The notes under the pieces: model-generated
What the model was told of the DNA's origin: nothing
Database searches by the model: none
The model's input: only the letters and a program-made list of their open reading frames with translations
Translations under genes and position numbers: made by a program
Shown: one piece after another, positions 1,717 to 5,372 of the stretch
Numbering within the stretch: the first letter of the stretch is position 1
How the letters are laid out: each line of letters begins with the position of its first letter
DNA from: a virus
Taxonomy: Duplodnaviria; Heunggongvirae; Uroviricota; Caudoviricetes
Strand: one strand, 5' to 3'
Length of the DNA: 17,256 nt
Virus record (IMG/VR): IMGVR_UViG_2698536348_000007
Coordinates: 1 to 17,256 of that record

Positions 1717-2075
1717 ATGAATATGAGTTTGTGCTTCCCTGGCCGCCGACGGTGAATACCTACTGGCGAAGACGGGGAAGCCAGTACTACATCAGCGATA
1801 AAGGCCAGAAATACCGAAAAGACGTACAGCAAATCATCCGGCAACTCAGATTAGACATTTTCACTAAATCACGACTTCGCATCACAATTATTGCTGAACC
1901 ACCAGATTCCCGCCGTCGCGACCTCGATAACATCCTGAAAGGTTTACTCGACTCTCTTATCCACGCCGGATTTGCGGAAGACGACGAGCAATTCGATGAC
2001 ATTCGCGTAATTCGCGGCGTGAAAGTGCCTGGCGGTAGAGTGGGGATAAAAATCACCGAACTGGAGAACATTTGA
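1713..2075 (+). CDS. rusA: Holliday junction resolvase RusA
   Basis: 120-aa ORF with hallmark RusA motifs (LPWPPTVNTYW..., RRRDLDNILKGLLDSL). Strong Shine-Dalgarno GAAGGAGGGG upstream; start overlaps the ybcO stop (ATGA). Confidence 0.9.
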   Translation: MNEYEFVLPWPPTVNTYWRRRGSQYYISDKGQKYRKDVQQIIRQLRLDIFTKSRLRITIIAEPPDSRRRDLDNILKGLLDSLIHAGFAEDDEQFDDIRVIRGVKVPGGRVGIKITELENI

Positions 2076-2269
2076 TGAATGCTAAAATTCAAACGATACC
2101 TGAATTACTGATCTGCACCAGGGGAAATCAGACAGAAGTCGCCAGAATACTGAACTGCAATCGTGCTACAGTCAGAAAATACATTGATGATAAAGATGCG
2201 AAAAAGCACGCCGTCGTCAATGGCGTCCTTATGGTTCATCGCGGATGGGGTAAAGATACTGATGCGTGA
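2075..2269 (+). CDS. ninH: NinH-like small DNA-binding protein
   Basis: Strong resemblance to lambda NinH ([38 protein letters not shown]). The ORF track starts at TTG 2072; the ATG at 2075 overlaps the rusA stop (TGATG) and is the more likely start. Confidence 0.8.
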
Positions 2270-2696
2270 TATCCGGCAGGTTCTTGAGCGCTGGGGGGCA
2301 TGGGCGGTAAATAACTATGAGGATGTTACATGGTCGCCCATTGCTGCCGGATTTAAGGGACTGATCCCCGAAAAAGTAAAATCACGTCCACAGTGCTGTG
2401 ACGATGATGCGATGGTGATATGCGGGTGCATAGCCCGCCTTTACCGGAACAATCGCGATCTGCATGACTTGCTGGTTGATTACTACGTGTTGGGGGAGAC
2501 GTTCATGGCGCTGGCACGGAAACATGGGTGCTCTGACACCTGTATAGGTAAACGCCTTCACAAAGCGGAGGGGATTGTTGAAGGCATGCTGATGATGCTG
2601 GGAGTGAGGCTTGAGATGGATCGGTATGTTGAGCGTGAATTGCCGGGAGGGAGAAGCTCTGTATTTTATCAGCGAAAAAATAGTTTACGATCGTAA
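2262..2696 (+). CDS. Q: Late-gene antitermination protein Q (phage 21/82 QuuD-like family)
   Basis: From the ATG at 2262 the product ([25 protein letters not shown]...[16 protein letters not shown]...) matches Q/QuuD-type antiterminators from memory. The upstream extension of the track ORF (2163) overlaps ninH and is rejected. Position immediately before the late promoter/lysis region fits. Confidence 0.85.
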
Positions 2697-2720
2697 AAAT
2701 CTGCATATCATGATAAGAGT
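2684..2720 (+). promoter_or_regulatory. Candidate late promoter PR' / Q-utilisation region at the end of Q
   Basis: -35-like TTTACG (2684-2689), about 16-bp spacer, -10-like TATCAT (2706-2711), with a second -10-like GATAAG just downstream. In lambdoid phages PR' sits directly after Q. Hexamer matches are weak, so the exact placement is uncertain. Confidence 0.3.
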
Positions 2721-2741
2721 GGTTACATTGCCACGCAGCCG

Positions 2742-2766
2742 AACCCGCCGATGCGCGGGTTTTTTT
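2742..2766 (+). terminator. Intrinsic terminator 45-70 nt downstream of Q (candidate tR' or Q-gene terminator)
   Basis: GC stem cccgc/gcggg (2744-2748 / 2755-2759) followed by T7 (2760-2766). Confidence 0.5.
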
Positions 2767-2946
2767 GTACCCAGAATCCTGTGAGCTATACGGAAAGTAC
2801 ACAGAAAGGAAGGTACGACCGCAATTAATAACAAAATCTTAAAAATCTCATATGGCACTATTAGTTTTCTAAATATTGTATATTTTAAGTATTGCAGGAT
2901 AACCCTGTAACGAAGTTTGCGTAACAGCATTTTGCTCTACGAGTTT

Positions 2947-2976
2947 GCCAGCCTCCCCTGGTGGCTGGCTTTTTTT
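2947..2976 (+). terminator. Intrinsic terminator (alternative tR' candidate)
   Basis: 7-bp stem gccagcc/ggctggc (2947-2953 / 2963-2969), 9-nt loop, followed by T7 (2970-2976). Confidence 0.55.
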
Positions 2977-3094
2977 GTATCCGTTCAACGGGAATGTTAC
3001 ATACCTCACAATTAAGTCAGTTGAATGTTGTCTGCCCGGATGAGAATTTGTTAGAAAAAACTGCATGGTGAATCCCCCTGAGCGGAGGGGCGAC

Positions 3095-3120
3095 TGGTGA
3101 CGGTATAATCTCTGATTATC
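3095..3120 (+). promoter_or_regulatory. Promoter-like element: consensus -10 TATAAT (3104-3109) with a downstream -10-like repeat GATTAT (3114-3119)
   Basis: Perfect TATAAT hexamer in a non-coding interval; upstream A-tract (3054-3060); -35 is poor. A -10-like repeat just downstream is the architecture of sigma70 promoter-proximal pause sites used by Q antiterminators. Confidence 0.3.
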
Positions 3121-3208
3121 AAAACGAGAATGACGCGGGTTTAGTGGCACCGGGCTGAACTCACCGGGAGGCACCCGGCACCATGCAATGGCACATAGCG
3201 CCACTCTC

Positions 3209-3234
3209 CAGCCCCTCTCCGGAGGGGCTTTCTT
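3209..3234 (+). terminator. Intrinsic terminator-like hairpin closing a candidate ~115-nt small transcript
   Basis: Perfect 7-bp stem gcccctc/gaggggc (3211-3217 / 3222-3228) with tetraloop tccg, followed by tttctt. Confidence 0.45.
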
Positions 3235-3240
3235 ATGGAC

Positions 3241-3268
3241 AAAAAAGCCCGCGCTGGGAGACGCGGGC
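3241..3268 (-). terminator. Minus-strand intrinsic terminator convergent with the previous hairpin
   Basis: On the + strand: A6 (3241-3246) then 7-bp stem gcccgcg/cgcgggc (3247-3253 / 3262-3268). Read on the - strand this is a hairpin followed by U6. Confidence 0.4.
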
Positions 3269-3461
3269 GGCAAGGAATGAACAATGAAACGTGAAGTAAT
3301 ATTTCAGCTGGCGAATAATACCCCATAGTAATCACTCTGCGCAACTGCGCGACCTTTTTCGAATTGCGGGCTGTAGTCTCCCTTCTGCCATTGTCCTGTA
3401 ACTTCCGGACTTCAGCCCGCTCCTTATTTTACTCACAATATTATCCCGGCCGGGAGGATTC

Positions 3462-5372
3462 ATGGCATTTAAACACTATGATGTTGTCAGGGCGGCGTCG
3501 CCGTCAGACCTTGCGAAACGAATAACTCAAAAACTGAAGGAAGGGTGGCAGCCTTATGGTAGTGCGCTGATTTCGACAGCTGGTTATGGTGCGGAGTTCA
3601 TCCAGCCAGTTGTGAGTGAGGGGAGCATCTCATCACCAGAGGAGCCAGGCAACCGTCCGACGACCTCAGCGCCTTCTGTTGCGCCAGAATATTACTATGT
3701 GATCGCGCTTGCTGGTCAGTCCAATGGTATGTCATACGGTGAGGGACTGCCATTACCGGATACATTCGACAGCCCTGATCCACGTATTAAACAGTTAGCG
3801 CGTCGCAGTACGGTGACACCGGGCGGTGCAGCATGCAAATATAACGACATCATTCCGGCGGACCATTGTCTGCATGATGTGCAGGACATGAGCCGTCTTA
3901 ACCATCCGAAAGCGGACCTGTCAAAGGGGCAGTACGGAACCGTGGGGCAGGGGCTGCATATCGCCAAAAAACTGCTGCCGTTTATACCGGCGAATGCGGG
4001 CATTCTGCTGGTTCCGTGCTGTCGTGGTGGTTCAGCGTTCACCACCGGAGCTGATGGCACATACAGTGACGCGAGTGGCGCCTCGGAGAATTCAACCCGC
4101 TGGGGTGTGGACAAGCCGCTGTATAAGGACCTTATCGGTCGAACAAAAGCGGCACTGGAGAAGAACCCGAAAAATGTGCTGTTTGCCGTGGTGTGGATGC
4201 AGGGGGAATTTGATTTTGGCGGTACGCCGGCAAATCATGCCGCACAGTTTGGTGCGCTGGTTGATAAATTCCGTGCAGACCTGGCGGATATGGCAGGCCA
4301 GTGCGTCGGTGGCTCTGCTGGCGGTGTTCCCTGGATATGCGGGGACACGACGTATTTCTGGAAGCAGAAGAACGAATCCACGTACCAGACGGTGTACGGC
4401 AGCTATAAAAATAAAACGGAAAAGAATATCCATTTCGTACCGTTCATGACCGATGAGAACGGGGTGAATGTGCCGACGAACAAACCGGAAGAAGACCCGG
4501 ACATTCCGGGTATCGGTTATTACGGTTCGAAATGGCGTGACAGCTCAGCCACCTGGACGTCACAGGACAGGGCGAGCCATTTCAGTTCATGGGCTCGCCG
4601 TGGGATTATTTCCGACCGTCTGGCAACGGCGATTCTGAGCTGCGCGGGTAAGTCTTCTGCGTTTGTTAATGGTACTGCCGGGGTGGTTGTTCCAGACAGA
4701 CCGGTTACCACCTCAGAGTCTGTAATTTTTTACGATGCCAAAAAAGCTACAGACAATCAGCTGAAACCCTATGGCTGGGACGGTGTGTATGGCAGGCGCA
4801 CACTGGTTGATGACAGCGGCAATAAAGCTCTGCGAATTGAGAAAAATAACAGCGCGAAATCCTGGTCAATGTACTGTGATATTGCTGCAGACAAGGCAAA
4901 ACTTTTACTGGAAAAAGGCGGGGAAATTGCTGTCCGGTTTAAAATCCCCGAAAACGTCAATCTTGAGACAACCAGAAACAAGTATGCCTTTGGTTTGTAC
5001 TGGCGAATAGCGGAATGGCCGGGTGAGGGTGGTGAAGGCCATCTGAGTTCTTTCTTTGTCCAGACAGATAAAGCCAGTATTAATGTTGCATACCATCATA
5101 CAGTTAATCAACAAAAAGAACTTGGCACGTTTGGCGCATTCGACCATGACTGGCATACGCTTGCATTTAAATTTAAGGGCAGTAACAGCATTAATGTTAC
5201 TCCGGTGCTTGATGGTGTGGATGGACAGGCGTTTGACCTGGTGAAATGGGCCAATACTGCTAATGGACTCAACAGGTTTGTCATTACGGATATTACAGGT
5301 AGTGCAGAAACCTACCCTGTACTTATTGATACGGTGGAAGTTAAAGCAAACAAAGCTGGAGCAGCCGCATAA
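3462..5372 (+). CDS. nanS-p: NanS-p-type prophage sialate (9-O-acetyl-N-acetylneuraminate) esterase, YjhS-like; N-terminal DUF1737-like domain plus SASA/SGNH esterase domain
   Basis: 636-aa ORF with GGAGG Shine-Dalgarno 6 nt upstream. N-terminus MAFKHYDVVRAASPSDLAKRITQKLKEGWQPYG and the ALAGQSNGMSYGEG...VVWMQGEFD esterase core match the nanS-p/yjhS family found downstream of stx in Stx phages, from memory. Sits in the Q-to-holin moron locus. Confidence 0.85.
   Translation: MAFKHYDVVRAASPSDLAKRITQKLKEGWQPYGSALISTAGYGAEFIQPVVSEGSISSPEEPGNRPTTSAPSVAPEYYYVIALAGQSNGMSYGEGLPLPDTFDSPDPRIKQLARRSTVTPGGAACKYNDIIPADHCLHDVQDMSRLNHPKADLSKGQYGTVGQGLHIAKKLLPFIPANAGILLVPCCRGGSAFTTGADGTYSDASGASENSTRWGVDKPLYKDLIGRTKAALEKNPKNVLFAVVWMQGEFDFGGTPANHAAQFGALVDKFRADLADMAGQCVGGSAGGVPWICGDTTYFWKQKNESTYQTVYGSYKNKTEKNIHFVPFMTDENGVNVPTNKPEEDPDIPGIGYYGSKWRDSSATWTSQDRASHFSSWARRGIISDRLATAILSCAGKSSAFVNGTAGVVVPDRPVTTSESVIFYDAKKATDNQLKPYGWDGVYGRRTLVDDSGNKALRIEKNNSAKSWSMYCDIAADKAKLLLEKGGEIAVRFKIPENVNLETTRNKYAFGLYWRIAEWPGEGGEGHLSSFFVQTDKASINVAYHHTVNQQKELGTFGAFDHDWHTLAFKFKGSNSINVTPVLDGVDGQAFDLVKWANTANGLNRFVITDITGSAETYPVLIDTVEVKANKAGAAA

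Follow-up and report, generated by a model that had tools for sequence, protein, structure and literature searches.

The late promoter PR′ at the end of a Q21/Q933W-family antiterminator gene is followed by two tandem terminators

Gene order and the late promoter at the end of Q

The window, that is, the whole stretch of viral DNA analyzed here (17,256 nucleotides), carries an antirepressor-type gene (698-1426), ybcO (1426-1716), rusA (1713-2075) and ninH (2072-2269), followed by a gene for a Q antiterminator of 144 amino acids (2262-2696, plus strand; PF06530, E = 2e-50). From the end of Q onward lie the late promoter PR′, two terminators (t1 and t2) with a homolog of the StxS RNA, the STnc100 sRNA gene and, as the first gene of the late region, a nanS-p type sialate O-acetylesterase gene (3462-5372, plus strand; Pfam DUF1737, SASA and DUF6645). 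The product of the last gene is labelled NanS or SASA esterase in the matching records. The region is a lambdoid late-regulatory region. No tRNA gene was found in the window by ARAGORN, so that this copy has no tRNA promoter or terminator context.

A non-Stx prophage of the E. coli O104:H4 outbreak lineage matches positions 2262-3470 at 100% identity. The alignment with the Sakai Stx2a prophage Sp5 gave approximately 97% identity between 2640 and about 2984, and an identity of approximately 97% from the end of Q through t2 is common to Sp5, 933W and H-19B. All differences from these three lie outside the promoter hexamers, outside the start region and outside t1 (stem, loop and T-run). The same elements and the 5′ hairpin described below are identical to the window in 933W (AF125520.1), Sakai Sp5 and Sp15, and H-19B; in these Stx-phage loci, t2 differs little and the identity of Q is 95-99%. 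In contrast to the Stx phages, the prophage of the window possesses neither stx nor the ileZ-argN-argO tRNA genes, and its sequence diverges after t2 into STnc100 and nanS-p. The remaining differences are C/T at position 2739, two nucleotides in the t2 loop, and U7 versus U6 at t2. The unit at 2680-2770 is present in 650 of 5,426 complete E. coli genomes, with at most four copies per genome.

A near-identical PR′-t1-StxS-t2 cassette was also seen in P13374 (L010, 1135-1400), the Stx2a phage of O104:H4, where Q is 94% identical and the T-run of t1 is T6. Since both P13374 and the non-Stx prophage carry the cassette, O104:H4 has at least two StxS-type loci.

The Q protein of the window is identical to that of Sp5 at 142 of 144 residues. 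It also matched the Q21 structures 6p18 and 6jnx distantly (E = 1.3e-7) over residues 8-86, and a "Q21/Q933W family" has been named (bioRxiv 10.1101/651190). Homologs of Q resemble each other up to residue 120-126, beyond which they diverge or end (region of about 120-144, window 2620-2696; L006, L008, L054, L116). The last 18 codons of the Q gene in the window run into the promoter palindrome. Over the shared part, the Q proteins of phages 434B and Lambda_ev203 are 77-81% identical to that of the window, and those of many contigs bearing the promoter-terminator module are 62-73% identical. Since 434B and Lambda_ev203 have a different promoter and terminator downstream, a mosaic joint is placed near codon 120-126 of Q.

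The initial annotation had pointed out a promoter-like pair overlapping the end of Q, and the consensus scan confirmed it. The hexamers TTTACG (2684-2689) and TATCAT (2706-2711, plus strand; the -10 hexamer) are separated by a 16-nt spacer and match the consensus at 9 of 12 positions, and the pair overlaps the Q stop codon TAA (2694-2696). Between 2000 and 4000, the scan gave three promoter-like sites against 2.2 ± 1.5 expected, which is the chance level, and seven terminator-like sites against 1.9 ± 1.1 expected, which is an enrichment. We regard the promoter and the hairpin that follows it as real because of the comparative evidence and the experiments available by homology; the consensus scores are not the basis for this.

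The position corresponding to 2684-2711 is annotated as "pR′; putative late promoter" in the GenBank record of 933W (AF125520.1). Moreover, the PR′ region of the window is base-for-base the same as the region of Sakai Sp5 and 933W that holds the PR′ start mapped by dRNA-seq. Thus, the late promoter suspected earlier at this place is PR′. In Sakai Sp5 and Sp15, dRNA-seq located the PR′ start, and Term-seq located the StxS 3′ end (tR′) at a distance of 258 nt from it (Sy et al. 2020, PMC7547250). The Sakai coordinates are 1,266,203 for the start and 1,266,460 for the 3′ end, and PR′ is reported to be always active (PMC7547250).

The transfer of these coordinates requires an offset of +142 between genome versions, which was deduced from internal consistency and from the old stx2A coordinates. 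Three independent landmarks fit it exactly. After the transfer, the start lies 7 nt past the -10 hexamer, the final T of the t2 T-run (2975/2976) coincides with the 3′ end, and GU/AUU stands at +173. The PR′ start in the window, transferred by homology from Sakai via the alignment, would therefore be the A at 2718 (plus strand).

The -35 hexamer and the Q stop codon are contained in a perfect 14-bp palindrome, TTTACGATCGTAAA (2684-2697). Where the Q gene of a relative ends 12-30 nt upstream, this palindrome is kept as non-coding DNA. At loci found by protein homology (L011/L012, at about 1610-1623; L014/L015), it reads TTTACGTACGTAAA, in which the centre is swapped and the palindrome is still perfect. 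The 14-bp palindrome may be a Q-binding element of the Q933 type, unlike the direct-repeat element of Q21. The palindrome is non-coding in most relatives.

Past the start, a 5′-proximal RNA hairpin, GUGGU/GCCAC, was predicted at 2719-2734 (plus strand; +2 to +17), with a folding energy of -7.3 kcal/mol (z = -4.5). Across 33 distinct relatives, the hairpin is 96% paired, and one pair is changed from GC to AU in nine sequences and to GU in five. The element annotated as "qut; putative" in 933W (window 2725-2732; AF125520.1) falls within it. Candidate roles of the hairpin are 5′-end protection, pausing and Q loading. A conserved -10-like pause element was sought in the initial transcribed region of the window and its relatives, and none was found; TACATT (+7 to +12) fits a sigma-dependent pause element at four of six positions, and the T at position 6 varies in relatives. 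No convincing Q-binding element could be pinpointed at the locus, the 14-bp palindrome being a candidate and the qut of 933W being putative.

Two terminators after PR′ and the StxS homolog

The initial annotation had also listed a GC hairpin with U7 at 2742-2766. This hairpin is present, with its stem at 2741-2762 and T7 at 2760-2766. The proximal terminator t1 (2741-2766, plus strand; +24 to +49) has an 8-bp stem, in which 2741-2748 pairs with 2755-2762 and five of the pairs are G-C, a 6-nt loop (CGAUGC) and U7. Thus, 2741-2766 has the GC-rich stem, short loop and adjoining U-tract of an intrinsic terminator. Its folding energy is -12.6 kcal/mol (z = -3.2 against dinucleotide shuffles), and 3 of 200 shuffles folded equally well. 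The 50-nt leader as a whole consists of exactly two hairpins (-19.6 kcal/mol, z = -2.6). In AF125520.1, a "possible rho-independent terminator" is annotated at the position corresponding to window 2744-2766.

Three terminators were found on the plus strand, at 2741-2766, 2947-2976 and 3210-3235. The second, t2 (GCCAGCC/GGCUGGC and U7), is the strongest of them (-16.8 kcal/mol, z = -4.3), and it is the mapped tR′, at which the StxS 3′ end was placed by Term-seq in Sakai. The second terminator of the 933W record (AF125520.1) corresponds to window 2947-2975. The reading of the unit changes because t2, which was absent from the earlier finding, lies downstream of t1. PR′ has two tandem terminators, t1 and t2, and there is no choice to be made between two units.

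Since AF125520.1 carries pR′ and a terminator at the homologous positions, both halves of the proximal feature have long been annotated. The terminator t1 is a real and widely conserved element, and PR′, t1 and the second terminator were already annotated in 933W in 1999 (Plunkett et al.). In terms of annotation, the feature is thus not unresolved as the initial annotation had it, and the Q-utilisation region is the proximal unit and not 3095-3235.

In Sakai, cleavage of the 258-nt long StxS by RNase E at GU/AUU (+173) releases its 3′ part, the active short StxS of 74 nt (PMC7547250). StxS acts on rpoS and stx1B (PMC7547250). The same RNase E site, GUAUU, lies at 2889-2893 of the window (plus strand; site from PMC7547250); +173 is U2890, so that the cut would fall between 2890 and 2891. 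The short StxS homolog (2891-2976, plus strand) is identical to that of Sp5 except for two nucleotides in the t2 loop and one extra U, the stretch at 2891-2958 being fully identical. With the same PR′ start, the same architecture of a 258-nt precursor, GU/AUU at +173 and the short StxS body, the StxS homolog in the window is 2718-2976. StxS ends at t2 (2947-2976), not at the t1 hairpin.

The initial annotation had proposed that the transcript of roughly 50 nt ended by the proximal hairpin was StxS-like. This identification fails, as the StxS 3′ end in Sakai lies 258 nt from the start, at t2, while the hairpin of the 2684-2767 unit ends at +49. Because t1 is at +24 to +49 and the mapped end is at +258, t1 is an internal part of long StxS, distinct from the mapped tR′. 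The t1 product of approximately 50 nt is not StxS, and it is without description in the literature examined; the first hairpin is not discussed in the papers found by our literature search. In the text of Sy et al., tR′ is the 3′ end at +258 alone, with no mention of one near +49 (PMC7547250). RNAs of approximately 50 nt may have escaped their libraries.

In an rne-ts host, long StxS builds up when PR′ is supplied on a plasmid (PMC7547250). Since the 258-nt RNA is made from PR′ without Q, t1 is not tight. We infer that t1 acts here as a leaky first terminator, at which termination is partial and which an appreciable share of the polymerases pass even when Q is absent.

The segment between PR′ and the end of StxS was also searched against Rfam. 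In the scan of 2000-4000 at E ≤ 1, no family spans the PR′-StxS segment, and weak sub-threshold matches to Qrr and VqmR were driven by t2. In the Nil3 record, "tR′" is annotated at the equivalent of 2820-2888; as this segment is without a terminator, we set it aside as an imprecise annotation. A -10-like stretch, TTGTATATTTT, was observed at 2874-2893, immediately before the 5′ end of short StxS. A primary start near this end was also called by dRNA-seq, and RLM-RACE pointed to processing (PMC7547250). If an internal promoter at 2874-2893 is real, short StxS would be partly independent of read-through at t1.

The proximal terminator in relatives

Relatives were collected from three sources: phage records with a Q homolog, genome contigs found by Q protein, and viral contigs found by the 15-mer TTTACGATCGTAAAA. 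The comparative set comprises 53 distinct module variants. In the shared module, the palindromic -35 element is followed by a -10 element TAT(C/T)NT, a start in TAAGAGTG and the small hairpin at the 5′ end of the RNA; then, after a linker that commonly reads CAGCTTA, comes a GC hairpin with its T-run. Since most of the set was collected with a promoter DNA pattern, conservation of the search pattern itself is true by construction.

We judged the conservation of t1 by detecting the hairpin in each sequence separately, with control windows, and not by alignment covariation. The strict test for a hairpin with a T-run was passed by 42 of the 53 variants, in comparison with 17 of 208 control windows taken from upstream coding DNA. 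In the 42 passing variants, the T-run starts at +21 to +86 from the transcription start; several of the others are near misses. At least 12 different stem sequences occupy the t1 position, for example CCCGC/GCGGG, CCUCGC/GCGGGG, CCUCAC/GUGGGG, CCUUGC/GCAAGG and CCCCGU/ACGGGG. Thus, what is conserved at t1 is structure and position, not sequence.

A small set that is independent of the DNA pattern was obtained by scanning genome contigs with the Q protein, which gave five loci. The module and a proximal terminator were found at the loci identified by protein homology only, namely those of Morganella phage IME1369_01, an E. coli/Shigella pair and two Citrobacter genomes. Because these loci show both, the conservation of t1 is independent of the search pattern.

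With a covariance model built from 33 variants, 55 matches to the module were recovered, in 53 of 63 sources. In its alignment, 89.8% of the cells are paired, versus 41-54% when the partners are slid. The terminator stem is 83.5% paired, and one pair shows double changes. The formal covariation of the terminator is modest and conservative because a 5-bp core was forced and longer stems were mis-registered. With MAFFT, the 5′ hairpin aligned well and the terminator arms did not.

By tblastn, a Q933-like gene (55-100% identity) was found within 900 nt upstream in at least 62 of 87 module instances, and it usually ends 12-30 nt before the module. We had considered that many modules lack Q, on the requirement of an LRS-stop frame at the palindrome; this was rejected, since tblastn of the upstream 900 nt finds Q genes ending 12-30 nt upstream.

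A second terminator near +252 is essentially limited to the Stx-like E. coli group, and most other lineages are without a further terminator within 330 nt. In one contig, L054 (Q 63% identical), a P21-type holin gene and a lysozyme gene follow 50 nt past the proximal terminator, which is the only terminator before them and so the sole candidate for tR′ there. Because t2 is restricted to the Stx-like group and t1 is the sole terminator in L054, t1 would be the ancestral tR′ of the family, and the StxS segment and t2 would have been added downstream, largely in the Stx-like E. coli lineage. This reading of the ancestry is based on distribution, not on a reconstructed phylogeny.

These results also bear on whether the t1 hairpin terminates transcription at all. 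It could instead be a structural part of the long StxS leader, such as a stabilizing or pause hairpin, with all Q-independent termination at t2. The text of PMC7547250 reports the Term-seq 3′ end of Sakai StxS only at +258, PR′ yields a detectable 258-nt RNA when Q is absent (PMC7547250), and terminators close to a promoter could conceivably be bypassed by polymerase that still carries sigma. However, t1 has a canonical stem and loop and an uninterrupted U7, and a conserved U-tract would be needless in a purely structural hairpin. The relatives keep the position and the architecture with many different stems, most of them without a second terminator in 330 nt, and in L054 t1 is the only terminator ahead of the lysis genes. 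We consider that a purely structural role is improbable, and we retain t1 as a terminator that is passed by a part of the polymerases.

Weakened forms of t1 were observed in some relatives (viral contigs L115, L024, L126, L033/L058). In these, a G of the 3′ arm is lost (GCGG for GCGGG, -6.4 kcal/mol), the T-run is interrupted (GTTGTGTTG), or the length of the T-run ranges from T4 to T8. Such variants could tune the Q-independent leak.

Proposed working of the cassette and the unit downstream

Taken as a whole, the locus probably represents the late cassette of a Q933W-type lambdoid prophage, in which PR′ is followed by the partial terminator t1 and then by t2, the end of StxS, and both are read through with Q. 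A PF06530 Q gene lies immediately upstream, a sigma-70 PR′ lies at the end of Q with its start assigned by homology, and terminators precede the late genes. In this reading, PR′ would be constitutive and start at A2718, and the nascent RNA would fold the 5′ hairpin and then meet t1. When Q is absent, part of the polymerases would stop at t1 and release an RNA of approximately 48-50 nt. The remaining polymerases would reach the stronger t2 (+230 to +259) and produce the 258-nt long StxS, and RNase E would cut it at GU/AUU (2890/2891) into active short StxS.

After induction, Q would load on polymerase paused just past PR′. Q21 forms a nozzle in antitermination (bioRxiv 10.1101/651190). By analogy with it, the Q of the window may form a nozzle on the RNA-exit channel and block terminator hairpins; the loading of Q is likewise suggested by this analogy. 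The Q-modified polymerase would then pass t1, t2 and the STnc100 terminator and proceed to nanS-p and the lysis and morphogenesis genes.

The proposed arrangement resembles the pR′-6S RNA-tR′ system of lambda, where a constitutive late promoter likewise gives a transcript that ends a short distance downstream when Q is absent. In lambda, a single 6S RNA of 194 nt ends at one tR′, whereas the window has two terminators, at +49 and +258. The lambda Q belongs to an unrelated family, PF03589 (bioRxiv 10.1101/651190). The Q21-QBE-SDPE-terminator system of phage 21 (Yin, Kaelber and Ebright) has a Q protein of the same PF06530 family as that of the window and follows the scheme proposed here, with a Q gene, PR′, a promoter-proximal pause and a terminator. 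However, the match to Q21 is distant only. Furthermore, Q21 binds to a direct repeat made up of two 8-bp subsites, whereas the window has a 14-bp palindrome and no evident pause element.

PR′ and its terminators control the expression of Shiga toxin and lysis genes and generate StxS. The feature is largely explained already, and the current understanding is not overturned. Of the two tandem terminators, the later one is the tR′ of the literature and the earlier one is conserved across the Q933W-type family, which raises the question of what fraction of transcription reaches the StxS segment.

One answer, which we regard as possible and rather unlikely, is that in lysogens most PR′ transcripts end at t1, giving an abundant RNA of approximately 49 nt that is overlooked by standard RNA-seq and Term-seq libraries, and StxS is made only from read-through. 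If this is so, the RNA would consist of the 5′ hairpin, a short single-stranded linker, the terminator hairpin and a U-tail. The leakiness of t1 would then determine how much StxS is made and how much basal transcription leaks into stx and the late genes without Q, and natural variation such as the T4-T8 T-runs and the GCGG for GCGGG stems in relatives could tune this leak. The short leader, which is conserved in prophages of Enterobacterales without StxS, could itself be a regulatory or Hfq-titrating RNA.

The minus strand offers another explanation, namely that the region is coding and the hexamers and hairpin are incidental. An ORF of 81 amino acids at 2685-2930 matches PHROG 17306 (phrog_17306; E = 1e-50) and appears as a hypothetical protein in some phage records. 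However, this PHROG, to which no function is assigned, stems from genes predicted in near-identical Stx phages, and RefSeq has no gene at the site in Sakai. The plus strand is transcribed experimentally as StxS (PMC7547250), and the minus-strand version of the t1 hairpin has no T-run after it. Because the length of the T-run varies among T6, T7 and T8 in close relatives and this would shift the minus-strand frame (the call in P13374 is shorter accordingly), the ORF is probably an annotation artefact, and we consider a coding origin of the feature very unlikely.

The unit at 3095-3235 was the other candidate Q site of the initial annotation. Rfam assigned 3035-3240 (plus strand) to STnc100 (RF02076), with 165.1 bits against a gathering threshold of 47 and over the full length of the model (1-206 of 206). 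Thus, the 3095-3235 unit is part of STnc100, a separate sRNA gene, and is not the Q site. STnc100 is a prophage sRNA that is related to PasD and linked to esterase genes (bioRxiv 10.64898/2026.05.13.724894). In Stx phages, the STnc100 segment matches elsewhere in the record and not beside Q.

That the true Q site and late terminator lie at 3095-3235, the 2684-2766 unit being a chance or vestigial feature, has next to no likelihood: the downstream unit does possess a perfect TATAAT (3104-3109) and a terminator-like hairpin (3210-3235), but it is a full-length STnc100 in a segment that lies away from Q and PR′ in Stx phages, and the PR′ start is mapped beside Q (PMC7547250), where the 2684-2766 module follows Q genes across genera. 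Of the two candidate Q sites, the proximal one is consequently kept and the distal one dropped.

STnc100 is an independent gene, and a Q-modified polymerase would need to read through it too. The perfect TATAAT lies inside the STnc100 model. After STnc100, a convergent terminator was observed on the minus strand (3247-3268; GCCCGCG...CGCGGGC and T6). STnc100 and this terminator sit between StxS and nanS-p, where Stx phages have the tRNA genes and stx.
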